A stretch of DNA of 64,000 bases from a virus (IMGVR_UViG_3300005259_000074:128001-192000), one strand, 5' to 3'. Counted from the stretch's first letter, positions 40,051 through 52,068 are shown. Notes: generated from the sequence alone by a model not told the origin. Program-made: numbers and translations.

Positions 40051-40241
40051 ATTTTGTCCTTCCTTTTAGACCTTAACAATCGACATATCTCGCAGTCACA
40101 TTCTTCGACTGACACGTCAGATATGTCGATGTGATCATAGAGCGTGTTACCGATCCTCTCCCAACAAAGAGGACAATACACATCGCCTTCAAATCCTCGA
40201 CATACTTCTTCGAGTTTGTTGAGACAAGATGGACACATCAT
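40032..40241 (-). CDS. Small Zn-ribbon-like protein
   Basis: CPSC, CPLC and CEIC motifs. Confidence 0.55.
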   Translation of the reverse strand: MMCPSCLNKLEEVCRGFEGDVYCPLCWERIGNTLYDHIDISDVSVEECDCEICRLLRSKRKDKMCSTTT

Positions 40242-40633
40242 CGGAAATCATCGTCATCGATCTTCGCGTTTGTGACACCTATGGCTTTAAAGAACGCCCC
40301 CATGTCGAAGTTGTCGACTACGGTGAATCCTCTGATCTTTCCTAGGTCTTCGTCAAAAGATATACTCCACGGATCGTACCATCCAAATTCTTCGCTGATC
40401 TGACCGTCTGATTCTCCGCTGAAAAACTGTTCTTTGATCTCTCCGCAGTCCGCCATGTTAGCGATTATGATCAGTTCTTCAAGAGGTTTGTCATGGGTGT
40501 CGGAGGCCGTCATCAGAGCGGCGATGTCGCAGTGCTTGTCTATAGCAGCAACCTGTGTGTCCGTGAGATCGCGGATGTTCACCACGAACGACGAACAAGA
40601 ACTGTTGCTGACGAACCCTACTCGAAGTTTCAT
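40238..40633 (-). CDS. GFVSNSS-motif protein 1
   Basis: Starts MKLRVGFVSNSSCSSF. Confidence 0.75.
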   Translation of the reverse strand: MKLRVGFVSNSSCSSFVVNIRDLTDTQVAAIDKHCDIAALMTASDTHDKPLEELIIIANMADCGEIKEQFFSGESDGQISEEFGWYDPWSISFDEDLGKIRGFTVVDNFDMGAFFKAIGVTNAKIDDDDFR

Positions 40634-40640
40634 TGCTGCG

Positions 40641-41042
40641 TCAGCACGTAGTGAATGGGATCACTAACGGCTCTTCTTTGAAGTTCTTTCGGAATGTTTT
40701 GACGCACTCCTTGAAGTTGTCTTCGAAATCTGAGATAGATTCTTCTCCGCCGTTCTCTACGTCTGCGACAGTCAGACCGAGTATGAATCGCTCGAAACAT
40801 TCATCACTGTTGATCTCGACGTCTTTGATCTTCATCTTGTCGAACGCCTCTAGGATGATCTCTTGGATCTCTCCTGGATCTTCTTCATCTATGTCCTCAG
40901 CTACTGCGGCGTACGTCTCTTTGAATTTATCGAGGTTTTTGTTGAGGAATTTCACGAGGTCTCCAATTTCTTCAAAAGACTTTCCAACGATGAGAAAGCT
41001 CGAAGAACTGCTGTTAGACACGAATCCCGCTCTGATCTTCAT
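40641..41042 (-). CDS. GFVSNSS-motif protein 2
   Basis: Starts MKIRAGFVSNSSSSSF. Confidence 0.75.
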   Translation of the reverse strand: MKIRAGFVSNSSSSSFLIVGKSFEEIGDLVKFLNKNLDKFKETYAAVAEDIDEEDPGEIQEIILEAFDKMKIKDVEINSDECFERFILGLTVADVENGGEESISDFEDNFKECVKTFRKNFKEEPLVIPFTTC

Positions 41043-41054
41043 CTTCTACCCCTT

Positions 41055-41354
41055 TCAGTATGTTTCTTGCAATATGTCGATCTTCATCTCTCTCAACATG
41101 AAACCCAAAAGAATGCTCACGTGTTGGTCAGTTGTGAGATGGTATGCTGAGAGTCCCTTGCACTTCCCATCGGAGATCTTCTTCTTACTCTCTTCATTGA
41201 GGTCCCAATCAGTCTCGTCTAGATCGTGTACTGAAGAATCGAACTCCGTTTCAGCTTTGCACATCCTCTTCATGAAACCCAGCTGATCTTTGTCAGCTAG
41301 TACTATGAAGCTAGATGAACTGCTGTTAGACACAAAACCATCTCTGCACTTCAC
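41055..41354 (-). CDS. GFVSNSS-motif protein 3
   Basis: Starts MKCRDGFVSNSSSSSF. Confidence 0.75.
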   Translation of the reverse strand: MKCRDGFVSNSSSSSFIVLADKDQLGFMKRMCKAETEFDSSVHDLDETDWDLNEESKKKISDGKCKGLSAYHLTTDQHVSILLGFMLREMKIDILQETY

Positions 41355-41584: not shown

Positions 41585-41890
41585 TCATAGGTTCGATAAT
41601 TCATTATCTGTTTCATTTGCTATTTCAGCGAGGATTTCTGCGTGGCAATATTTTGGAGAGCACCAACATCCCAAGATCTTGTCTTTCAATTCACATCTTA
41701 CTTTTTCTCTCAGTTCTATGTTCTCATTCAGCCATTTTTTGAACTTGAGGATCACTTCATTCCGATTTCCATCTTTTCCAATCTCGAACGGATTTCCGAA
41801 TGGACTTGGCCGTCCCACATAAACATCATATGTCGTCTTTTTGCAGTGCACGACATACTTAGCGTATTTTCTCTTGGAAGATTTTGACAT
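41585..41890 (-). CDS. DUF4326-like protein
   Basis: VVHCKK..YDVYVGRPSPFGNPF...LGCWCSPKYCHA. Confidence 0.85.
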   Translation of the reverse strand: MSKSSKRKYAKYVVHCKKTTYDVYVGRPSPFGNPFEIGKDGNRNEVILKFKKWLNENIELREKVRCELKDKILGCWCSPKYCHAEILAEIANETDNELSNL

Positions 41891-41897
41891 ATGAAGT

Positions 41898-41969
41898 AGC
41901 CCAAAATCGGTGCCGACCCGATGACCTCGTCCTTACCAAGGACGTGCTCTACCGCTGAGCTACTTGGGC
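41898..41969 (-). tRNA. tRNA-Thr(GGT)
   Basis: Cloverleaf by hand; loop TT-GGT-AA; T-loop GTCGGCA; no CCA. Confidence 0.9.
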
Positions 41970-41975
41970 ATATGT

Positions 41976-42049
41976 TGGTGCGGTTAGGGAATTACGATAT
42001 CCCGATTGCTGTCTGGCAGGCAGCCGTCTTTCCTCTAGACTATAACCGC
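41976..42049 (-). tRNA. tRNA-Gly(GCC)
   Basis: GCGGTTA/TAACCGC acceptor stem, CCA, non-canonical T-arm. Confidence 0.85.
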
Positions 42050-42060
42050 AATGTAATTAT

Positions 42061-42453
42061 TTACCCTCTCAGGCAGCTTCCACAAGCTCCAGAAGGTTTG
42101 CAGTCTTCTGGACACCTTGTCATATCTTCTTCGTCTCTGTACTTCTCGATCATTGTCTTAGCTGTGAAGATCAACGCGCGATTTCTAGCGCCTTTCATCG
42201 TCTTGGAGTATGGAGTGACCTCTAAAAATCCTTTCCACGTGACGAATCCCCTATAAGTCTTACCCACGCTGAACACGTGGACTCTGACATCTTTCGCTGG
42301 GTCACAGTGATATCTGTTATCTCGCTCTTTCACCCACTTAGCTTTCTTGAAGACCTGCAATCGTTCTTTCACGTCGAACAGAGTTGGATGATACTTGACA
42401 TCGTCTTCTGAGAACGATATGTCTATCTTCTGCATGATCGTGAAATTGTCCAT
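42061..42453 (-). CDS. Hypothetical protein within the tRNA array
   Basis: 130-aa ORF ending just before tRNA-Gly. Confidence 0.55.
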   Translation of the reverse strand: MDNFTIMQKIDISFSEDDVKYHPTLFDVKERLQVFKKAKWVKERDNRYHCDPAKDVRVHVFSVGKTYRGFVTWKGFLEVTPYSKTMKGARNRALIFTAKTMIEKYRDEEDMTRCPEDCKPSGACGSCLRG

Positions 42454-42454
42454 G

Positions 42455-42649
42455 TCATCTTCTCACTTCTGGTATTGGAAGTCCTTCTTCTCTCAGCATT
42501 TCTATCCCATCATCGATAGCTTCTTCTAGAATCTCTAGAGCTTTCACTTGGTCTCTATCAATACCCGACAGATGAGGAAAATCTTTGCACACGGCGATGA
42601 ACTCACCGTGTTCTTCGTCGTACACAATGATCTTGTTGTAGTGTGACAT
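42455..42649 (-). CDS. HicB-like antitoxin N-terminal domain only
   Basis: DEEHGEFIAVCKDFPHLSG...EALEILEEAIDDGIEMLREEGLPIP; 64 aa; no DNA-binding domain. Confidence 0.8.
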   Translation of the reverse strand: MSHYNKIIVYDEEHGEFIAVCKDFPHLSGIDRDQVKALEILEEAIDDGIEMLREEGLPIPEVRR

Positions 42650-42724
42650 TGGTATCCTCTGTAGGTAACGAGCCTACGACCTTCGCGATGTGAACGCGAT
42701 GCTCTACAACTGAGCTAAGAGGAC
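42650..42724 (-). tRNA. tRNA-Val(CAC)
   Basis: TCGCG-TT-CAC-AT-CGCGA anticodon arm; CCA. Confidence 0.9.
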
Positions 42725-42735
42725 AAGAAACTTCA

Positions 42736-43077
42736 TCATTTCCACAATTTGTACCAAGAGAACGGCTTCGGCCACTGATCGTTAGGCCTTGGACAGAACA
42801 CCAACGCAGTCTCAGCACCACCAAGTCCCGACTCGGTCATCAACACGTATTTGTCGAACTTCTTGGCGTTCTCAAATTCTCTGTCGTTGAGCTTACAGAT
42901 GCACTTCCTGAAAGACTTGTCTAGCCATAGGTCGTAGTCTGCGTCTTTCCCAGAGAACTGCCTGTCGGCCGCTAACACTCCGTGCCCGACGGCCAGCATA
43001 GCGTGTCCTATGTCGATAGACTCTCTGACCAAGATGTACATCCTGGTGCTGCACTCAGTCGAAGTCGTCGTACTCAC
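42736..43077 (-). CDS. Peptidyl-tRNA hydrolase type 2 (PTH2)-like protein
   Basis: MYILVR...G..M.AVGHG...W....F.KCIC...TAL..CPR; start may be 43041. Confidence 0.7.
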   Translation of the reverse strand: MSTTTSTECSTRMYILVRESIDIGHAMLAVGHGVLAADRQFSGKDADYDLWLDKSFRKCICKLNDREFENAKKFDKYVLMTESGLGGAETALVFCPRPNDQWPKPFSWYKLWK

Positions 43078-43240
43078 TGTACTTGTCCATTTCTACGTCA
43101 TCTAGGAGTTCTTCGATGAGCTTCTTCTCAGACACTCGTTTTTCGTTGCGGTTCTTCATCGTCTTCTCTTGTGGGTTGACTTCCCACATTTTGCGTGTCA
43201 ATTTGTAGGACGGCGTCTTCTGGTGCTTCTTAGAGCTCAT
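43055..43240 (-). CDS. Small hypothetical protein
   Basis: 61-aa ORF with ATGA overlap. Confidence 0.55.
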   Translation of the reverse strand: MSSKKHQKTPSYKLTRKMWEVNPQEKTMKNRNEKRVSEKKLIEELLDDVEMDKYSEYDDFD

Positions 43241-43398
43241 TTCATCTTTCTCTTCTTGATAACTGTACTGCGTCTAGCTCTCTTCCAGAATTCCTCAGTG
43301 AGTTCTGGAATGTCTGAATAGTCTATTTCAGAATCTTTCATCGCCCTGAGTCTGTCGATGTCATCTTGTTTTATCTTTCGTGTAGAGCGATCTACCAT
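43237..43398 (-). CDS. BrnA-antitoxin-like N-terminal fragment (53 aa, not in the ORF track)
   Basis: MVDRSTRKIKQDDIDRLRAMKDSEIDYSDIPELTEEFWKRARRSTVIKKRKMK; overlaps both neighbours. Confidence 0.7.
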   Translation of the reverse strand: MVDRSTRKIKQDDIDRLRAMKDSEIDYSDIPELTEEFWKRARRSTVIKKRKMK

Positions 43399-43553
43399 TC
43401 TGTGATAGTCTTTCTGAAATCTTCTTTCGGAAGATTCTTATACCTGCGAACTTTCTTCTTGCAGTAAGGACAGCGTTCTCCTTCGCTCACGAGTGCGTGA
43501 TCGCAACATGGACACCAAGAATGCCTGTATCTGTGTAAAGGGCCGCGCTTCAT
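43392..43553 (-). CDS. Small Zn-ribbon protein
   Basis: CPCC and CPYC motifs; ATG three nt after the CCA of tRNA-Val(TAC). Confidence 0.6.
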   Translation of the reverse strand: MKRGPLHRYRHSWCPCCDHALVSEGERCPYCKKKVRRYKNLPKEDFRKTITEW

Positions 43554-43556
43554 AAT

Positions 43557-43631
43557 TGGTAGGAGTAGAGGAAATCGAATCCCCATAGCCGACGTGTAGA
43601 GTCGGTGCACTTACCGTTGTGCTATACTCCC
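43557..43631 (-). tRNA. tRNA-Val(TAC), C33 variant
   Basis: CCGAC-TC-TAC-AC-GTCGG; CCA. Confidence 0.85.
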
Positions 43632-43912
43632 ATAACAAAGTCTAGATCGAGCAAGTTTGGAGCGGTCCGGACATTTTACTGCAGCAATCTGTCCAAACAT
43701 CCTAAAGCATCTAATTATATATTTCTTGCTCGACCTAGACCCATAAATCATCTGGTGCCTATAACCGGTCTCACGACCAGTAACCCTCCCGACTCCTCGA
43801 CTGTTGGTCTAGCAGATTTACCATGGCACTCTGCTATACTCTGTCGCACCCTCGTTCGCGTGAAAGCAATCGATTGCTTTCCTAGGCTGGCGCTTGACGT
43901 ATCAAGCGTAAA
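43632..43912 (-). ncRNA. Structured non-coding RNA candidate
   Basis: 16-bp stem GTCTAGGTCGAGCAAG/CTTGCTCGATCTAGAC plus several hairpins, between two tRNAs. Confidence 0.55.
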
Positions 43913-43986
43913 TGGTCCCTCCAGCAGATCTCGAAACTGCGTCTCGGGCTTATGAAACCCGCGTTCTTCCTGTGAACTATAGAGGG
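43913..43986 (-). tRNA. tRNA-CAT (elongator Met or Ile2)
   Basis: CGGGT-TT-CAT-AA-GCCCG; CCA. Confidence 0.85.
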
Positions 43987-43996
43987 ATAATGCACG

Positions 43997-44070
43997 TGGT
44001 ACTCCTTGAGGGTTCGAAACCTCGACCTCTTCCATGTCACGGAAGTGCTCTACAACTGAGCTAAAGGAGC
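43997..44070 (-). tRNA. tRNA-Val(GAC)
   Basis: CTTCC-GT-GAC-AT-GGAAG; CCA; T-arm one nt short. Confidence 0.85.
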
Positions 44071-44501
44071 ATGAGATCGTTCTTGACTGTCCTTCTGATG
44101 TTCTTCCTTATCAGCATGATCATCTTACCTAGTACGTTCTTCCCAGTGCCTTTGCACTGGCTGCAATAACATACTCCCCAGCAGCGGTCGTGCCACGTGT
44201 TGCCTTCTTCGAGGTACTGATCGCCTGTGTCTAGCAACTTCTGCCTCAACACTGGGTCTCTGAACTTGTAGACCAGAAGTCGGTACATCACTCGGTACTT
44301 CTTGACTTCCCAGTCTGGAACCATTGAACAGACTTGACCTGCTCTCTTGGCTTGCCCTGGAGATGGGAGGTGAGCGATGTACTTCCTAGTCGAGGGACTA
44401 GATGCTTTCGCAGCTTGGTAGTAGTGCTCGATAGTCTTTCCGTTCGGGAACTTCGAAAAATTGGAGAGCCAACGAGTGTCGCCGCGAAATTCCTTGATCA
44501 T
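44061..44501 (-). CDS. NADAR (YbiA-like) family protein
   Basis: WLSNF, EHYYQAAK, KFRDP.LRQKLL.TG and EGNTWHDRCWG motifs; ATG at 44501 with GAGGA SD; stop lies inside tRNA-Val(GAC). Confidence 0.85.
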   Translation of the reverse strand: MIKEFRGDTRWLSNFSKFPNGKTIEHYYQAAKASSPSTRKYIAHLPSPGQAKRAGQVCSMVPDWEVKKYRVMYRLLVYKFRDPVLRQKLLDTGDQYLEEGNTWHDRCWGVCYCSQCKGTGKNVLGKMIMLIRKNIRRTVKNDLMLL

Positions 44502-44608
44502 CTCATCCTCTTCGTTTGAATTTTCCCGAGCTCCTTCGCGTCTATCCGGTCCTGGCAGGCGGCGACGTGTAGTGCCGCTCTTCGAGTCGAAGAAGGGACC
44601 CTCGAGAA

Positions 44609-44682
44609 TGGAGCACTGTGGGAATTCTGACATCCCAACTGCAACTTGGGAAGTTGCGGTCTTTCCTTTAGACTAACAGTGC
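44609..44682 (-). tRNA. tRNA-Gly(CCC)
   Basis: GCAAC-TT-CCC-AA-GTTGC; CCA; T-loop GTCAGAA. Confidence 0.85.
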
Positions 44683-44685
44683 AGA

Positions 44686-44759
44686 TGGTGCGAGTAGAGA
44701 ATTCCGACATCTCGTCGCTAGTTTGGAAAACTAGGGTCCTTCCTCTGAACGATACTCGC
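44686..44759 (-). tRNA. tRNA-Gly(TCC)
   Basis: CTAGT-TT-TCC-AA-ACTAG; CCA; T-loop GTCGGAA. Confidence 0.85.
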
Positions 44760-44891
44760 ATTAACACTCGGACTACTGATCCCTCTCCGGTCTCGACTAT
44801 ACGGTGACCTCGAGTGGATCCTTCATCCGAATCTGGCTCGGATAGATGTGGAGAGCGTCTATACGGTTCTTCACGTCTATTCGAAAACTTC

Positions 44892-44967
44892 TGGCGCATC
44901 CAAGGAGTGCTGACCTCCTGACCTGCGGATCGACAATCCGCTGCACTAACCGTTGTGCTATGGATGC
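44892..44967 (-). tRNA. tRNA-Asp(GTC)
   Basis: GCGGA-TT-GTC-GA-TCCGC; G73; CCA. Confidence 0.9.
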
Positions 44968-44982
44968 ATGATCTAATATACT

Positions 44983-45056
44983 TGGTACTCCATAGCGGTG
45001 TTGATCCGCTTCCTCATGGCTGAGAACCATGTGGTCTACCGTTAACCTAATGGAGC
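44983..45056 (-). tRNA. tRNA-Glu(CTC)
   Basis: CATGG-TT-CTC-AG-CCATG; CCA. Confidence 0.9.
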
Positions 45057-45064
45057 ATGAATTC

Positions 45065-45140
45065 TGGTGGACGCAGTGGTAATCGAAACCACATTCTCCG
45101 GGTGCAAACCGAAAGTAATAAACCGTTATACTATGCGCCC
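45065..45140 (-). tRNA. tRNA-Ala(TGC)
   Basis: G3:U70 pair; TT-TGC-AC loop; CCA. Confidence 0.9.
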
Positions 45141-45296
45141 TGTTGAATCTCTAAAGATTCATAAAGATAAATCAAACTGCCGCTCCTGTCAATGAAGACC
45201 AATTGAATCTTCACGAGAGCGATCTTCTCTCATTGCAACGCACTGAGATCTATCCGGACTACAACCGGAGTTCGATAGGCGGACGTCTCCGCTTTC

Positions 45297-45372
45297 TGGT
45301 GGATACGGGAGGTGATCGAAACCTCTCTTGCAAGATGCGAACCTGCCGTGCAGCCATCTACACTACCGACCC
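45297..45372 (-). tRNA. tRNA-Ala(CGC)
   Basis: G3:U70 pair; TT-CGC-AT loop; one-nt bulge in the acceptor stem; CCA. Confidence 0.8.
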
Positions 45373-45393
45373 ATAATAATGATGCATCTGACT

Positions 45394-45469
45394 TGGAGCC
45401 TACGGGCAAGGATTTGAACCGCCATCCATCGGGTACAGACCGATGATTCTACCTTTGAACTACGCAGGC
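45394..45469 (-). tRNA. tRNA-Thr(TGT), C33 variant
   Basis: ATCGG-TC-TGT-AC-CCGAT; two-nt bulge in the T-stem; CCA. Confidence 0.8.
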
Positions 45470-45480
45470 ATGAAAAACTG

Positions 45481-45562
45481 TAACAGAGGTGGAGAGTTGA
45501 ACCCACAATGCGTTTCCGCCTGGGTTATGAGCCCAGTTAGCCTACCGAGGCTCGTCTCTGTA
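45481..45562 (-). tRNA. Initiator-like tRNA-Met(CAT) with long variable arm
   Basis: CTGGG-CT-CAT-AA-CCCAG (three G-C pairs), U1:U72 mismatch, V-arm GCG-GAAA-CGC; no CCA. Confidence 0.7.
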
Positions 45563-45565
45563 ATC

Positions 45566-45654
45566 TGGTGGAGAGGGAACGATTCGAACGTCCGACACAG
45601 AGCCCTAATTCAAACATCAGTTGGCTCCTGCTCTACCGCTGAGCTACCTACTCC
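45566..45654 (-). tRNA. tRNA-like RNA with extended anticodon arm (20-nt loop region); identity unknown
   Basis: Canonical D-arm, T-arm and CCA; anticodon stem GGAGC/GCTCT encloses CAACTGATGTTTGAATTAGG. Confidence 0.7.
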
Positions 45655-45671
45655 ATTATTTCTATGAAGAG

Positions 45672-45745
45672 CTCCTGTGGCATGGCTCGAACATGCGACT
45701 TGGAGATTAACAATCTCCCGTTCATACCGACTGAACTACACAGGA
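45672..45745 (-). tRNA. tRNA-Asn(GTT) copy 1, inside a 21-bp perfect inverted repeat
   Basis: GGAGA-TT-GTT-AA-TCTCC; G73; no CCA. Confidence 0.9.
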
Positions 45746-45761
45746 GCTCTTCATAGAAAGT

Positions 45762-45837
45762 TGGCTCACTTGGCTTGATTCGAACAAGCATGTTCAGAGT
45801 TAACAGCTCTGCCTACTGCCAATTGTAGTACAAGTGA
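45762..45837 (-). tRNA. tRNA-Asn(GTT) copy 2
   Basis: CAGAG-CT-GTT-AA-CTCTG; G73; CCA. Confidence 0.9.
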
Positions 45838-45845
45838 ATAAGAAA

Positions 45846-45976
45846 TTAGACTGGTCGCTCTTCCGCTGAGCTATCGTGTACATTCTACTTCGTTAGCTGG
45901 ACTCAGTAGAAGTAGGTCCTCCGCGTGCACTCATCAGACCACTCACGAGTCGGATTTGAACCGACGTCTTCCAGTT
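45846..45976 (-). ncRNA. Circularly permuted tRNA-like module P3
   Basis: 3' half 45976-45941 precedes 5' half 45880-45846; ACCAG/CTGGA and TACACGA/TCGTGAG pairings; 60-nt insert closing the acceptor stem. Confidence 0.75.
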
Positions 45977-46000
45977 GATGGTGTCTCTAGGGCACCTTAA

Positions 46001-46080
46001 TGAGTGCGAGTGTTCTACCATTAAACTACCAGCAAGGTATTTCACTCGCCAGCTTGGAATCGAACCAAGACCTCTCGCTT
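46001..46080 (-). ncRNA. Circularly permuted tRNA-like module P2
   Basis: 3' half 46080-46045, 9-nt linker TGAAATACC, 5' half 46035-46001; CTCGC/GCGAG and TTGCTGG/CTGGCGA pairings. Confidence 0.8.
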
Positions 46081-46114
46081 TGGTGGAACGCCGCTCTTTT
46101 CATAACCGCGCCCC
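46081..46114 (-). ncRNA. Ala-type acceptor microhelix (34 nt)
   Basis: GGGGCGC...GCGTTCC-A-CCA with a G3:U70 pair. Confidence 0.6.
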
Positions 46115-46305
46115 ATAAATGCCTCGACACATTAGCCGCTATGCTACTAGTGCCAACAAATCCACTGAAAAGCATGGTTGTGTTGCAACACAGTTCTCTC
46201 CTAGAAGAGAACGCTCGTCAGTTTCATTGAGGTGTCGAAACGCGGTTGCAATCCGCTTTACGACCTATTGCACAAGTTGGGATTTGAACCCAACTCTTCG
46301 AGGGT
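46115..46305 (-). ncRNA. Circularly permuted tRNA-like module P1
   Basis: 3' half 46305-46269, 115-nt structured insert, 5' half from 46153; TCGAG/CTCGA and GCACTAG/CTTGTGC pairings. Confidence 0.75.
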
Positions 46306-46381
46306 TGGTGGTGTCGGCGGGCAATGATCCCACAACTTTCCGGGTAAGAGCCGGATACTCTGCCAATTGAGTTACGACACC
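46306..46381 (-). tRNA. tRNA-Lys(CTT)
   Basis: TCCGG-CT-CTT-AC-CCGGA; CCA; T-loop ATCATTG. Confidence 0.9.
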
Positions 46382-46388
46382 TTGAATC

Positions 46389-46512
46389 TGGTAACGGACC
46401 TACATTTAGTAGTGCCTCATGGGCTATGTTGCCCAGCGTGCTGCCCCGCCAAATGTTTCTATCCGGGGCGAGGTGACGCAGTGATGGTTCTGCGCCTTTA
46501 CACCATTCCGTA
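46389..46512 (-). ncRNA. 124-nt CCA-ended multi-hairpin RNA (tRNA-like)
   Basis: TACGGA/TCCGTT-A-CCA closing stem enclosing four hairpins. Confidence 0.5.
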
Positions 46513-46520
46513 ATAAACTG

Positions 46521-46588
46521 TAGCGGAGCTGGATTCGATACCAGATCACCAGGTTATGAGCCTAGTATGCTACTTACACCACCCCGCA
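46521..46588 (-). tRNA. Initiator-like tRNA-Met(CAT) with minimal D-loop
   Basis: TGCGGGG/CTCCGCT acceptor with U1:U72 mismatch; CT-CAT-AA loop; no CCA. Confidence 0.75.
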
Positions 46589-46942
46589 TGTTGGTGTCTC
46601 TAGGACACCATAAAGAGTCATCAGTTGACGCTCTCCGAGCGATCATCAGAGGTGGAGAAGTTTCTTAGACAGAGATGAATCTTGACGGGACCATTTGAGT
46701 TGGGTAAAAACCCACGTGAGGTCCTTCGTGGCACATGTCTGTCAGACGCCGGCTGCTCAGCAACCGACATCGCTCCTCCACCTCGGATGACCACTGGAAA
46801 GCGATCACCTGAGAATAATCCTCATTTTCAAAGAACGGTGCATGAGCTTTAGTAGCACGCATATCTCTCAGTCTGTTCAGCTAGCGACTTGCGCCTCTAG
46901 CATCTGAAAGCTCTCGCGACTCATGCTGAGTCCATTTTGTCT
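46589..46942 (-). ncRNA. About 350-nt structured non-coding RNA candidate
   Basis: GAGGTGGAGGAG/CTTCTCCACCTC long-range helix with flanking helices; 12-bp G-U-rich hairpin. Confidence 0.6.
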
Positions 46943-47017
46943 TGGTGCGCTCGGAGAATTTTGAAATCTCGACTCTCTGGTTAAAAGCCAGATACTCTGC
47001 CTCTGAGTTACGAGCGC
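46943..47017 (-). tRNA. tRNA-Lys(TTT)
   Basis: TCTGG-CT-TTT-AA-CCAGA; CCA. Confidence 0.9.
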
Positions 47018-47055
47018 ATATTTCTAATCAGCACCTGAGACTTTCACATCTCATT

Positions 47056-47132
47056 TGGTGGGAGAACCGGGTTTCGATTCCGGATATCCTGCTCTTCAGG
47101 CAGGAGCTCTTGACCGTTTGAGCTATTCTCCC
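47056..47132 (-). tRNA. tRNA-Phe(GAA)
   Basis: CCTGC-CT-GAA-GA-GCAGG; CCA. Confidence 0.9.
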
Positions 47133-47141
47133 ATAAACTTC

Positions 47142-47216
47142 TGGTATCCCGTGTCGGTATCGATCCGACTTCCCCTGGATGAAGGCCAGGCATCCTAGCC
47201 AGTAGACGAACGGGAC
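47142..47216 (-). tRNA. tRNA-Glu(TTC)
   Basis: CCTGG-CC-TTC-AT-CCAGG; CCA. Confidence 0.9.
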
Positions 47217-47221
47217 AAATG

Positions 47222-47276
47222 TGAATGAGATGTCTCGCGACATACCAGTTGCAAGCAACTGTCTCACTCATATTCA
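47222..47276 (-). ncRNA. Small three-way-junction RNA candidate
   Basis: TGAGA/TCTCA closing stem, CAGTTGC/GCAACTG hairpin and TGTC-GCGA-GACA GNRA hairpin. Confidence 0.4.
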
Positions 47277-47379
47277 ATGATCACCGGCTTCCGATCTCTC
47301 GTCCGCCTAATCCAATTATACACCACGTGGTGAAAATTGTAATAGGACTTTCGAAAAATCTTCGACCTTTCTTTCGAAC

Positions 47380-47454
47380 TGGAGCTGGTTCCCGGTGACG
47401 ATCCGAGGTCTGTGGGATACGAATCCACTGCTCTACCATTTGAGCTAAACCAGC
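47380..47454 (-). tRNA. tRNA-Thr(CGT)
   Basis: GTGGA-TT-CGT-AT-CCCAC; CCA. Confidence 0.9.
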
Positions 47455-47625
47455 ATCATCTTCTAAAACTAAGAAGCCCTGCTTTTCTGCAGGGCCCGTT
47501 CTAATCTTCATCTTTGATTTCGAACAGACCCTATGACGTGACTCCTTCAGCCGCATCAAACATTGCGGTTTCATTTTTCTTATCTGTCATCACGTTCATC
47601 ATACGAATCATTCCTCTTCACAGTC

Positions 47626-47633
47626 TATTTATA
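47626..47633 (-). promoter_or_regulatory. T4-type late promoter TATAAATA heading the tRNA array
   Basis: Exact consensus on the minus strand, about 170 nt upstream of the first tRNA. Confidence 0.6.
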
Positions 47634-47786
47634 CTGTGTGCTATGAAGTTTTTGAACTGTCTGCCGAGAAAATGTGAAAATTCTTTTACCCCTATATAAG
47701 GTATAAATGAAGAAATGAAGTTATCGCAGGATGTTGTTCATTACCAACGAGTTATAAGAAAAATGAAAGAAAATGATGAATTCTGC

Positions 47787-47819
47787 TGTACATCCTCCCT
47801 TATGGCGTTATATTAGACT
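47787..47819 (+). promoter_or_regulatory. Early promoter TGTACA-N16-TATATT
   Basis: 21-nt exact repeat with 32756-32776. Confidence 0.7.
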
Positions 47820-47863
47820 ACATAGGGAAACCAACAACGGCAACCCACAAATGGAGAACAGCG

Positions 47864-48022
47864 ATGAAAAAGAATCCGATTGCAAAGAAGCCTGTTAAAC
47901 AGAAGACACCTTCTCTTTCAAAGTTACAGAAGATCAATGACAAGCGCATACACGATGCGTGCGAGATGGATCCCGCTCTATGTGATGATGCATTCTGGGA
48001 TAATCTCTGCAAGACATTATAA
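47864..48022 (+). CDS. 52-aa protein, weakly BrnA-N-terminus-like (not in the ORF track)
   Basis: GGAG SD; KLQKINDKRIHDACEMDPALCDDAFW; first gene after the promoter. Confidence 0.55.
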   Translation: MKKNPIAKKPVKQKTPSLSKLQKINDKRIHDACEMDPALCDDAFWDNLCKTL

Positions 48023-48038
48023 TAAGTGAGGAAACTCC

Positions 48039-48461
48039 ATGAAGACGACGGTCGTCAAATACGGCCTCCAAGACATAGAGACCGGCAAGATAGTGGGAGT
48101 CACTGAACGTACCGCGTCGACTCCCGAGGAGGGGAACAGCATCGAGTACCAGCTTGACACTCACGGAGGAGAGCGAGAGTGGCTAGTCGACTCAGCGGAG
48201 CACGCTGAGTGGGTGCGTCTCAACGACACCGCGTATTACAATTCAGGTTACGACACTCCTCAGCACATGGGATTGCGCCCCGAGCAGTTGAGAGTCATCA
48301 GAGTCAAGAAGGTTGTCGAGGTCACACCCGTCGAGGTGAAGATACCGACGAAGCTCGAACTCTACCGTAAGGTGTACGAAGAGGGCGTGACGATAAGGCC
48401 GGGCGGCTTCCTCATAGCGCCGACGGGCTGGGTCACCTCGCTATGTTGGAAGCTAACATAG
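48039..48461 (+). CDS. Hypothetical protein
   Basis: 140-aa ORF with GAGGA SD. Confidence 0.6.
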   Translation: MKTTVVKYGLQDIETGKIVGVTERTASTPEEGNSIEYQLDTHGGEREWLVDSAEHAEWVRLNDTAYYNSGYDTPQHMGLRPEQLRVIRVKKVVEVTPVEVKIPTKLELYRKVYEEGVTIRPGGFLIAPTGWVTSLCWKLT

Positions 48462-48531
48462 ACGATTACGAGCCGTTGTACTGGGACTATGTGCAGTACT
48501 ATAGAGACGTCGAAAAGAAGAGGATCTGAAC

Positions 48532-48852
48532 ATGCTGAAGAAACTCAGTAGAAAGAAGATTACATCTGGTTCGATCAGCGAAGTTGCAGATATCTTGACT
48601 GAATTCGCTGGAAAATATCCGAAATTCCAGAAAGAGTTAGACGATTTCATCTGGTCAAGGGGATCTTACCAGACACCTGATGTCGCAGATGACGATCCTG
48701 CTCTGATAGATGAGACCAAGAAGACCAACAGAGAAACTATAGTCAGGCGCATTTCAGAACTGACGTCGGCAGAAGACAGCGAGAGATTCCGCACTGCGCT
48801 AGCGAAATACATCGCGAATAAGAAATCACACGAAGGACTAGAGGAAAGTTGA
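48532..48852 (+). CDS. Hypothetical protein, tandem paralogue A
   Basis: KYPKFQKELDDF...SEL TSAEDSERFR matches the next gene. Confidence 0.65.
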   Translation: MLKKLSRKKITSGSISEVADILTEFAGKYPKFQKELDDFIWSRGSYQTPDVADDDPALIDETKKTNRETIVRRISELTSAEDSERFRTALAKYIANKKSHEGLEES

Positions 48853-48853
48853 T

Positions 48854-49219
48854 ATGTTGGAAGAAAAGTGGGTTGAATTCCTTTACAAGTTGTACGAGAA
48901 ATATCCACAACTATCAAAAGATCTCCACGAGTTTGTTGTGCCGAAGGGACATTTTGATGATCGGATAGCGGCTGCTGGTCAAGATCTCGATAAAATGACA
49001 GCCGCAAAGAAAGCGAACCAAGAGGATTTCGTCAATTTTCTCGCATCAAAGACGTCACAGGATGAAGCGGAAGAATTCAGGAGGATCTTAGAAGAATGCC
49101 GCGCAGCTAAGAAAGTCCAGAAGGAACTCTTTGAGAAAAAGTGGGAAGATGAAAAGGAAAAGAGAAGCCACTGCTACAAGGCTGATGACTACATGAAAAC
49201 GATAGGACGAGATGAATAA
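48854..49219 (+). CDS. Hypothetical protein, tandem paralogue B
   Basis: KYPQLSKDLHEF...ASKTSQDEAEEFR. Confidence 0.65.
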   Translation: MLEEKWVEFLYKLYEKYPQLSKDLHEFVVPKGHFDDRIAAAGQDLDKMTAAKKANQEDFVNFLASKTSQDEAEEFRRILEECRAAKKVQKELFEKKWEDEKEKRSHCYKADDYMKTIGRDE

Positions 49220-49430
49220 CCGATGAGCAATCACCCAAGACGACGAGAACGGTGTCGCGTCATTATGCGACAACTGGCCTATATTGGGAGAAAGATCAGA
49301 TAAAAAGTGCTACTATTTTGAAGAGTCCGGTGATTTAATTCACTGTGAATACGAAGGGAAAGGATGCTCTTGCCTCCATGAGAAAGCGCTGAAAGAAGCG
49401 CTTGCGATGCACAGAATGAACGTGATATGA
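49212..49430 (+). pseudogene. Cys-rich C-terminal-motif-group ORF interrupted by in-frame TGA at codon 5
   Basis: MNNR*AITQDDENGVASLCDNW...CSCLHEKALKEALAMHRMNVI. Confidence 0.5.
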
Positions 49431-49448
49431 ACTGCGAAAGAACTTCAA

Positions 49449-49649
49449 ATGATCATCACGACTGAAGAAGAGTACGAAGCTGCATTGAAGAGAGTCGAGA
49501 GCCTGTGGGTTGCCGAAGATGGCTCCTCTGAGGCCGACGAACTACACTCTCTCGTCCTCGCGATAGAGGAGTGGGATGACGAACACTATCCCATAGATCC
49601 ACCTACAGCCGAAGCGGCGATTGAGTTCAGGAGAGAACAAGAGAAGTGA
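49449..49649 (+). CDS. HigA-like antitoxin N-terminal domain only (no HTH)
   Basis: ITTEEEYEAALKRVESLW...EADEL..LVLAIEEWDDEHYPIDPP..EAAIEFRREQ. Confidence 0.8.
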   Translation: MIITTEEEYEAALKRVESLWVAEDGSSEADELHSLVLAIEEWDDEHYPIDPPTAEAAIEFRREQEK

Positions 49650-51206: not shown

Positions 51207-51458
51207 ATGTTTAGAGGTGTGATAAGTGAAGACATCAACGGCGGGAGGGAAGTCCTCTGCGACGGAGAAGCTTTCACCGAAGATGATCCTCGCTACTTCA
51301 TGTCTCAAGAACAGTGCGGCTACTTTGAGGAGAACCGTGAAGGTGATTGTTTCCACAGGTACAGGAAGGACCCAGGTGATTGGTGGACGTGCATCCACCC
51401 TCTCCACCGCTCGCTCGCTGAGGATACTCTGATCGAGATACGACTGGAGGGGATATAG
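51207..51458 (+). CDS. Small Cys-rich protein, C-terminal-motif group (ends RLEGI)
   Basis: Clear paralogue of the next gene (V.CD..AF..DDPR). Confidence 0.7.
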   Translation: MFRGVISEDINGGREVLCDGEAFTEDDPRYFMSQEQCGYFEENREGDCFHRYRKDPGDWWTCIHPLHRSLAEDTLIEIRLEGI

Positions 51459-51748
51459 TGTTTAAAGGCGTCATAGATCTGAGCATCAATAGTGAGAGGA
51501 AAGTATTCTGTGATAGCAATGCATTCTCTGGAGATGACCCTCGTTCTAAGTATCCCGAATCTTCGACTCTGTGCAGCCACTATAACGCGGGACCCGGGTT
51601 TGGCATTTCTTCTAAAGGATCTTGGACATGCATTCATCGAATCCAACGCTGCGATAAAGGGTGGGGCATGTGCGATCACCCGGATGCTAAAGATCTTGCA
51701 CTGACTACAGAAGAAGCTATACTAGAAGATAAACTGGAGAAGATATAG
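51458..51748 (+). CDS. Small Cys-rich protein, C-terminal-motif group (ends KLEKI)
   Basis: Paralogue of the previous gene. Confidence 0.7.
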   Translation: MFKGVIDLSINSERKVFCDSNAFSGDDPRSKYPESSTLCSHYNAGPGFGISSKGSWTCIHRIQRCDKGWGMCDHPDAKDLALTTEEAILEDKLEKI

Positions 51749-52068
51749 TGTTCAAAGGGACTCTCGATCTCGACTACACTCACCTCAGCAGTAAAGAAAT
51801 AGATGAAATAACTTCGTTGGCGTCGCCAGTCTTGTGCGACAGGTATTTGTTTGTTGGGGTTGACCTTAGGTCACAACTGATGGACCATGAGTGCGAGTGT
51901 TATGAATCAATGATGTCTCCTCAAGGATCAGTAAGTTGTCGTCATTTAAAGAAAATTGAATCTAAAATAACAGGCCCGTGGCGAACGTGCACTCGACACG
52001 ATGCACGACAGCTAGCTAAACATCAAGACGACGAGTGGAAAATCTTACTGAAATTGGAGAACATATGA
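51748..52068 (+). CDS. Small Cys-rich protein, C-terminal-motif group (ends KLENI)
   Basis: MFKG start; W.TC.RH..A..LA segment shared with neighbours. Confidence 0.7.
   Translation: MFKGTLDLDYTHLSSKEIDEITSLASPVLCDRYLFVGVDLRSQLMDHECECYESMMSPQGSVSCRHLKKIESKITGPWRTCTRHDARQLAKHQDDEWKILLKLENI

Follow-up and report, generated by a model that had tools for sequence, protein, structure and literature searches.

HigA-, BrnA- and HicB-type toxin-binding domains without toxins or DNA-binding domains in a large uncultured phage: candidate decoys beside a tRNA array

Introduction

The window analysed here is a stretch of 64,000 nucleotides (bases 128001-192000) of the 262,470-bp virus record IMGVR_UViG_3300005259_000074. 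Its subject is a group of three small open reading frames (ORFs), termed ORF1, ORF2 and ORF4, which encode the toxin-binding domains of HicB, BrnA and HigA antitoxins, respectively, from toxin-antitoxin (TA) systems of type II. Each of these proteins ends without the ribbon-helix-helix (RHH) or helix-turn-helix (HTH) DNA-binding domain, and no cognate toxin gene was found in the record. Together with a gene for a NADAR-domain protein, the three genes probably constitute a counter-defence island, whose small proteins would serve as decoys that sequester RNase toxins of the host or of mobile elements. The observations behind this proposal are the homology to the toxin-binding halves of antitoxins, the absence of DNA-binding domains and toxins, purifying selection, recurrence in large phages, and the clustering of the genes.

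A preliminary description of the region, made from its sequence, had listed antitoxin-like genes at 42455, 43237, 47864 and 49449, and all four ORFs are present. Pfam and NCBIfam gave no usable match for any of them, and word-indexed homolog searches with ORF1, ORF2 and ORF4 returned in each case only the query itself and one ortholog from a sister phage.

Toxin-binding domains of three antitoxin families

For ORF4 (66 amino acids, aa), 368 plasmid records were matched by tblastn (best match 53% identity, E 3e-11). The matches inspected, in three regions, are the N-terminal half of HTH proteins of 119-166 aa that are encoded directly downstream of HigB; one of these partner toxins was scanned in Pfam and matched PF09907 (E 1.4e-33). 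ORF4 also matches a hidden Markov model (HMM) of HigA (E 3.6e-17, HMM positions 6-68 only) and PHROG 10398 (2.7e-15), and its family profile matches the Escherichia coli HigA structures 5IFG and 5YCL in the PDB (E ~1e-9); phmmer searches of the PDB sequences with ORF4 and with ORF1 gave nothing, or spurious repeat-protein matches only. In E. coli/Shigella HigA and in SehB, the N-terminal domain is responsible for toxin interaction and dimerisation, and the C-terminal domain is the HTH (PMC7160566). In the alignment, residue 62/63 of the full-length relatives marks the beginning of the HTH_3 domain, and ORF4, with the C-terminal end ...AIEFRREQEK, reaches only about eight residues of this domain before its stop; no C-terminal HTH (XRE/HTH_3) was matched in Pfam, and there is no downstream HTH remnant in any frame. 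The proposal of a HigA-like protein without HTH at 49449 is therefore borne out by tblastn, the HigA HMM and the alignment end.

Complex prediction, which had been suggested in the preliminary description as a check, was run for ORF4 with the HigB of another viral locus (L039). The model reached an interface score (interaction prediction score from aligned errors, ipSAE) of 0.75, compared with 0.01 for the best control; of 78 solved complexes, 51 attain that mark, as do two of 108 mismatched pairs. Between the runs, at least 98% of the contacts agree, the partner has a predicted local distance difference test (pLDDT) score of at least 82, and 11 of the 16 residues that are invariant between ORF4 and bacterial HigAs are located in the predicted HigB interface (hypergeometric P = 0.007). 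The model supports a resemblance of ORF4 to a HigB binder, and is to be read as a likeness and not as proof of binding, since a similar complex (E. coli HigBA, 5IFG) has already been solved.

ORF2 (53 aa) represents the N-terminal toxin-binding motif of BrnA. It carries the conserved BrnA segment DIDYSDIPxLTxxFWKxA and scores 76.8 bits against an HMM of the BrnA N-terminal motif, i.e. the shared 33-residue segment (E 2.9e-26 alone; 2.2e-22 in a whole-genome scan). By tblastn, 77 plasmid records were matched, and nearly all of the listed ones are annotated as BrnA (54% identity over residues 13-53, E 5e-6); a profile search of 1.84 billion representatives returned 763 relatives. ORF2 aligns with residues ~22-68 of a 110-aa BrnA that is encoded after a BrnT toxin, and it stops just before the RHH strand. 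The BrnA-like gene without RHH reported for position 43237 is hence confirmed by the motif HMM, the identity to BrnA and this end point. No match was obtained in Pfam at E <= 10, and ORF2 lies below the threshold of PF14384. The PDB entry 7VD7 consists of a BrnT homolog (chain A, E 1e-27) and a 44-residue antitoxin chain (chain B) that is the same segment as ORF2; a fragment without RHH has hence been crystallised with the toxin. The C-terminal 12 codons of ORF2 (43237-43272) encode a Lys/Arg-rich tail at the place of the RHH, and a tail of this kind is also found at the end of its nearest short relatives P0006, P0007 and P0008.

ORF1 (64 aa) follows directly after the gene for tRNA-Val(cac), is preceded by a GAGGA ribosome-binding site, and corresponds to a stand-alone N-terminal domain of HicB. 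In hhalign, residues 5-63 of a 109-aa HicB, which is encoded directly after hicA, align with ORF1 (97.9% probability, E 3e-13); further matches are PHROG 497, 'HicB-like' (9.4e-5), and annotated HicBs in tblastn (E 3e-5). All ten structure rows obtained with the ESM Atlas model of ORF1 (pLDDT 0.82) are HicB clusters, with template modelling (TM) scores of 0.82-0.89. No match was obtained with the Pfam HicB models, because the part modelled in PF05534 'HicB' is the C-terminal RHH, which is missing from ORF1; in HicB relatives of ORF1 this C-terminal part is the PF05534 RHH (residues 60-111 in the closest two-domain relatives). A profile of the HicB subfamily of ORF1 did not match the PDB, a Foldseek search of the PDB with an AlphaFold2 model of ORF1 (made from a two-sequence alignment, with a pLDDT of only 66) gave no match at E <= 0.001, and a scan of viral contigs revealed no relatives of ORF1.

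Bacteria commonly have HicBs of 61-72 aa with a single domain, as seen in the Atlas clusters. For this reason the C-terminal DNA-binding domain does not define the HicB family, and ORF1 is a normal short HicB architecture and not a truncation product. The HicB-like identity assigned to the gene at 42455 is upheld by hhalign and PHROG 497, and its designation as a 'fragment' was overstated.

The fourth gene, ORF3 (52 aa), had been described as a weaker BrnA-like gene, which was not confirmed: its score against the BrnA N-terminal HMM is 3.4 bits, whereas shuffled copies of ORF3 score up to 9.2 bits. There was no match in the ESM Atlas, no viral relative was found, and Pfam gave only a sub-threshold match to DUF6862. 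ORF3 should be dropped from the antitoxin set, and the described anatomy, toxin-binding halves that lack RHH and HTH, holds for the three others. The features of the region are listed in Table 1.

Table 1. Antitoxin-like genes, their associated genes and the tRNA array (positions in the window)
Feature	Position	Strand	Evidence
ORF1, 64 aa; stand-alone HicB N-terminal toxin-binding domain, without RHH/HTH	42455-42649	-	hhalign, PHROG, Atlas
ORF2, 53 aa; BrnA N-terminal toxin-binding motif (DSEIDYSDIPELTEEFWKRA) with Lys/Arg-rich tail replacing the RHH	43237-43398	-	tblastn, motif HMM
ORF3, 52 aa; heads the plus-strand block that follows the tRNA array, good GGAGAA ribosome-binding site	47864-48022	+	
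ORF4, 66 aa; HigA N-terminal toxin-binding/dimerisation domain (E. coli type)	49449-49649	+	tblastn, HMM, PHROG
61-aa ORF with acidic tail; ATG overlaps ORF2 stop	43055-43240	-	junction sequence
53-aa zinc-ribbon ORF; stop overlaps ORF2 ATG (translational coupling)	43392-43553	-	junction sequence
NADAR-domain protein, 146 aa	44061-44501	-	Pfam PF08719, 2.6e-20, 73.7 bits (cut-off 35.1)
Array of 20 tRNA genes	41898-47454	-	ARAGORN

Absence of toxin genes and of DNA-binding domains

The completeness of the record is estimated at 97% (CheckV). Six-frame searches of this genome (E <= 10 or 1) revealed no BrnT, HicA, HigB, ParE/RelE or Gp49: PF09907 and PF05015 (HigB) have no match at E <= 10, PF04365 (BrnT) and PF07927 (HicA) are absent, and so are the antitoxin families PF15919, PF02604 and PF16277. 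Used as tblastn and phmmer queries, the toxins that partner the closest relatives (HigB, BrnT and two HicA) had only chance-level matches in the genome (best E 0.07); these direct searches matter because one of the two HicAs is invisible to Pfam. ORF4 is not located beside higB, the gene upstream of ORF2 is the zinc-ribbon ORF instead of brnT, there is no hicA for ORF1, and the ORFs adjacent to the antitoxin-like genes match no toxin family. The lack of an adjacent cognate toxin, as noted in the preliminary description, was found again and extends to the entire 262-kb record.

An HMM scan of all stop-to-stop ORFs of the genome located the BrnA segment in ORF2 only and HigA in ORF4 only, and revealed no remnants of HTH or RHH domains in any frame.

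Conservation in a sister phage and the NADAR gene

A sister phage is known from metagenome contigs (JGI and ENA), and encodes orthologs of 62 aa (ORF1), 45-49 aa (ORF2) and 70 aa (ORF4). The gene order NADAR, zinc-ribbon, BrnA N-terminal segment, 61-aa, 101-aa, HicB N-terminal domain, 130-aa and DUF4326 is common to both phages; the neighbours of ORF4 differ between them. The ratio of nonsynonymous to synonymous substitution rates (dN/dS) is 0.16 for ORF1 (versus the 62-aa P0004), 0.18 for ORF2 (versus the 49-aa ortholog) and 0.13 for ORF4 (versus the 70-aa P0002), and the short lengths have been retained at 72-81% protein identity. By these comparisons, the short forms of ORF1, ORF2 and ORF4 are functional genes under purifying selection.

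The NADAR gene, the only copy in the genome, is 92% identical to a 146-aa gene of the sister phage; the length of 146 aa is taken from this comparison, as the 190-aa ORF call starts too early. The genes for ORF1, ORF2, ORF4 and NADAR span 7 kb of the 262-kb genome (P ~7.5e-5), and ORF1, ORF2 and the NADAR gene are interleaved within the minus-strand tRNA array. For NADARs of other phages, experiments have demonstrated an orphan-antitoxin activity against DarTG1 (PMC11825919).

The island of the sister phage holds an extra gene without toxin, for a 57-aa DUF4926 protein (L082:3311-3484), ~560 bp upstream of the NADAR gene; DUF4926 is absent from the present genome. DUF4926 is a conserved partner of DUF6883/BECR-Tox3 RNases (preprint 10.64898/2026.08.28.747851), and its turnover between the sister phages is typical of accessory anti-defence loci. 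The same sister contig (L082) ends in a Cas12f1/TnpB-like gene.

The zinc-ribbon ORF is 89% identical in the sister phage, and the 61-aa ORF has a dN/dS of 0.08 versus its sister ortholog. Neither matched any family, including toxin families. The trio of zinc-ribbon ORF, ORF2 and 61-aa ORF is kept in the sister phage and is not found in a further viral locus (L091), in which the BrnA-type gene stands alone.

Occurrence in other phages

Of 76 viral loci with a HigA N-terminal domain, 67 encode the full-length protein, which nearly always follows closely on HigB; the other nine encode short forms of 61-69 aa, none of which has a HigB within 3 kb. Seven of these nine (66 aa, L059-L066) map to the TA module of the P1-like phage D6. 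They were not counted in support of decoys, being probably rearranged TA remnants of P1/D6-like prophages. The short form of L071 (171-kb contig) is ~45% identical to ORF4 and ends at the same residue (...AIKFRMEQQ).

The HigA N-terminal domain is also found fused to non-HTH tails, in L053:3001-3702 (120-kb contig, 233 aa) and in L095:1324-2196 (LR745208.1, 485-kb uncultured phage, 290 aa), and these two proteins diverge from the HigA domain at the same point. HigB was not found in any of the five records that were checked.

The nearest relatives of ORF2 (P0007 and P0008) have the same short length and the same Lys-rich tail, and P0008 is located in an otherwise unrelated phage-like contig of 53.7 kb with no BrnT called among its neighbours. 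Some short BrnA matches in the databases are contig-end or truncated fragments. In a viral protein of 115 aa (L081:3001-3348), the BrnA segment DIDYSDIPEITDEEF is fused to an unrelated C-terminal domain, which is not RHH.

Proposed function and alternatives

HigB and BrnT are RNases of the RelE/ParE superfamily; certain HigB systems cause phage infections to abort (PMC11980606). For the island we favour a role in counter-defence, which is rather probable, in the following manner. During infection, type II antitoxins of the host would be degraded or not replaced, by which the RNase toxins HigB, BrnT and HicA would be freed, and the freed toxins would abort the infection. ORF4, ORF2 and ORF1 would bind these toxins one-to-one via the interface of the host antitoxin and keep them inactive, and the NADAR protein would reverse DNA ADP-ribosylation of the DarT type. 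As HTH and RHH are missing, the phage half-domains would act purely as sponges with no binding to operators, and should not repress host TA operons, as judged from the missing domains alone. For the phage proteins, it is inferred that they bind toxins in vivo, which toxins these are, when the genes are expressed, and that host TA transcription is left unaffected.

Several points weigh against a counter-defence role. The host may not carry HigB, BrnT, HicA or DarT. Type II antitoxins are usually specific for their cognate toxin (PMC11825919), and domains of 45-55% identity may therefore not neutralise a given host toxin. In the complex model, ORF4 was paired with a substitute HigB taken from a different viral contig, and the score may reflect memory of the solved HigBA complex. 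The lone HicB N-terminal domain is common in bacteria and could serve other roles, and the translational coupling of ORF2 to two small genes could mean a phage-internal module. The resemblance of L059-L066 to rearranged TA remnants means that not every short HigA form is a decoy. Finally, the record is labelled as provirus in IMG/VR, which leaves room for a role in lysogeny that the proteins may have.

The proteins may, with lower probability, be antidotes against toxins of competing mobile elements, that is, addiction modules of plasmids and prophages, or BECR-fold RNase effectors of other phages, and would then act in anti-addiction or in immunity between phages. Plasmids and prophages carry the full-length proteins most closely related to ORF4 and ORF2, the DUF4926 protein of the sister island partners DUF6883/BECR-Tox3, for which fusions to phage MuF proteins are frequent, and anti-addiction has been discussed as an idea (PMC11825919). 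However, the mechanism of toxin sequestration would be the same and is not separable by sequence from a targeting of host defence, and prophage and plasmid TA systems serve as host defence too.

It is unlikely that the domains are partners of phage-encoded proteins (a module of ORF2, zinc-ribbon ORF and 61-aa ORF), or that they have been re-used, in connection with the tRNA array, as general modules for protein binding or for an RNA-related role. A phage-internal module would agree with the overlap of the ORF2 start and stop with its neighbours and with the retention of this trio in the sister phage, but the neighbours of ORF2 match no toxin family, those of ORF4 are not the same in the two sister phages, and the gene for the BrnA segment stands alone in L091. 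Re-use of domains would agree with the HigA domain on unrelated tails in L053 and the 485-kb phage, the fusion of the BrnA motif to another domain in L081, and the wide distribution of the HicB N-terminal fold as a single domain; on the other side, those ORF4 residues which are conserved in bacterial HigA fall within the predicted interface with HigB.

Decay of former phage TA modules, with loss of the toxin, truncation of the antitoxin and no function left, is largely excluded by the selection data and is very improbable. Rearranged TA modules are indeed suggested by the 66-aa HigA of P1/D6-like prophages, and some of the short BrnA matches are truncated or lie at contig ends. Against decay stand the dN/dS values of 0.13-0.18 with short lengths retained between the sister phages, the lack of remnants of DNA-binding domains in any frame, L071 as an independent recurrence of the same end point, and the ribosome-binding sites and tight operon packing.

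Interference with host antitoxins, by mixed dimers of ORF4 with host HigA that disturb its repressor function or stability, is conceivable from the location of both homodimerisation and toxin binding in the N-terminal domain of E. coli-type HigA and SehB (PMC7160566), but is highly unlikely, given that a freed toxin would harm the phage, that no analogous logic exists for the BrnA segment or NADAR, and that ORF4 is placed on HigB with high confidence in the model.

An extension of the proposed decoy function is more tentative and, in our estimate, doubtful: large phages may have turned the conserved toxin-binding segments of several type II antitoxin families into minimal sponges free of DNA binding and possibly of broad spectrum, which would form, with tRNAs and NADAR, a 'translation-protection' island of changing content. 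Given how conserved the BrnA segment and the end point of the HigA domain are, a single sponge might be able to neutralise numerous BrnT or HigB toxins. Such a broad-spectrum sponge, if true, would break the usual strict cognate specificity.

Comparison with known systems

Virus-encoded antitoxin homologs without toxin are established as counter-defence, with AdfN and SMV1 gp44 as examples. AdfN, a NADAR orphan antitoxin of a T4-like phage, acts against DarTG1 (PMC11825919), and a chimallivirus DarG2-like antitoxin is a further orphan antitoxin of phages (PMC13309987). The present phage resembles this case in having antitoxin homologs without toxin for a putative counter-defence, and its NADAR gene is of this type. 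AdfN, however, is an enzyme that reverses the modification made by the toxin (type IV logic), whereas ORF1, ORF2 and ORF4 are non-enzymatic type II binding domains without the DNA-binding half. SMV1 gp44, a Phd homolog of an archaeal virus, binds and neutralises the host Doc, and the viral homolog ADG.51 retains one of the two host domains (PMC11065993). SMV1 gp44 is likewise a single viral homolog of a type II antitoxin without toxin; it differs in its family (Phd), in its origin from an archaeal virus and in its validation by experiment, whereas the HigA, BrnA and HicB parts described here are from a bacteriophage and are known from sequence.

With respect to the bacterial systems, ORF4 is of the same family as E. 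coli K-12 HigA (YgjM, 5IFG) by profile (E 1e-9) and corresponds to its N-terminal domain, but lacks the C-terminal HTH and is not beside higB, in a phage without HigB. ORF2 shares its segment with the Brucella abortus-type BrnA of BrnTA and with the antitoxin chain of 7VD7; unlike BrnA, it has no RHH, falls below the PF14384 threshold and has a Lys-rich tail, and there is no brnT in the genome.

Free-standing CcdA/HicB-like antitoxins linked to homing endonucleases have been described in 'moraphages', which are large aquatic phages, and were proposed to act in counter-defence (PMC12619734). These are also large phages with several antitoxin genes, including HicB-like ones, without toxins; that paper mentions neither HigA nor BrnA (0 occurrences each), and loss of the DNA-binding domain is not described in the passages drawn on here. 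T4 Dmd (against RnlA/LsoA) and phiTE pseudo-ToxI are cited as phage antidotes that replace the labile host antitoxin during infection (cited in PMC11065993). Dmd is not homologous to the host antitoxin and pseudo-ToxI is RNA, whereas the proteins described here are clear homologs of antitoxin binding domains. No report of N-terminal half-domains of HigA, BrnA or HicB as phage decoys was found in the literature searched.

HigBA, BrnTA and HicAB are among the commonest TA families, and their role in phage defence is far less settled than their abundance suggests. Toxin-binding parts that are conserved in a phage without toxin and without DNA-binding domain are indirect evidence that these RNase toxins threaten phages in nature, and the proteins of 53-66 aa are ready-made reagents for testing this threat. 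If working, they would count as the first decoys from a bacteriophage for the HigA, BrnA and HicB type II families and would delimit, in natural form, the smallest neutralising segments, and antitoxin half-domains beside tRNA arrays and NADAR would be a search handle for anti-defence islands in uncultured large phages.

Genome and neighbouring genes

The IMG/VR record was cut as a provirus from a contig of 313,637 bp, on which identical proteins are encoded; this classification may be artefactual, or else the virus may be a temperate jumbo phage. T4-like baseplate genes and HNH endonuclease genes are present in the genome. Megablast of the region against the INPHARED phages gave no match, i.e. 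no isolated phage is close. Scans for sigma-70-type promoters and terminators around ORF3-ORF4 gave results not above shuffled expectation.

A candidate Pth2-type peptidyl-tRNA hydrolase at 42736-43077 was unsupported by Pfam and matches only PHROGs without assigned function. The tRNA array is bordered by a gene for a 101-aa DUF4326 protein (41585-41890, minus strand; Pfam 1.9e-25), which is kept in the sister phage. Also on the minus strand, three tandem paralogs (40238-40633, 40641-41042 and 41055-41354) share an N-terminal GFVSNSSxSSF motif, and all three are kept in the sister contig L082. On the plus strand, an adjacent pair of paralogous genes (48532-48852 and 48854-49219) is located just upstream of ORF4, with relatives in the sister contig L085, and three abutting tandem paralogs (51207-51458, 51458-51748 and 51748-52068) encode small Cys-rich proteins, each of which starts with MF(K/R)G.

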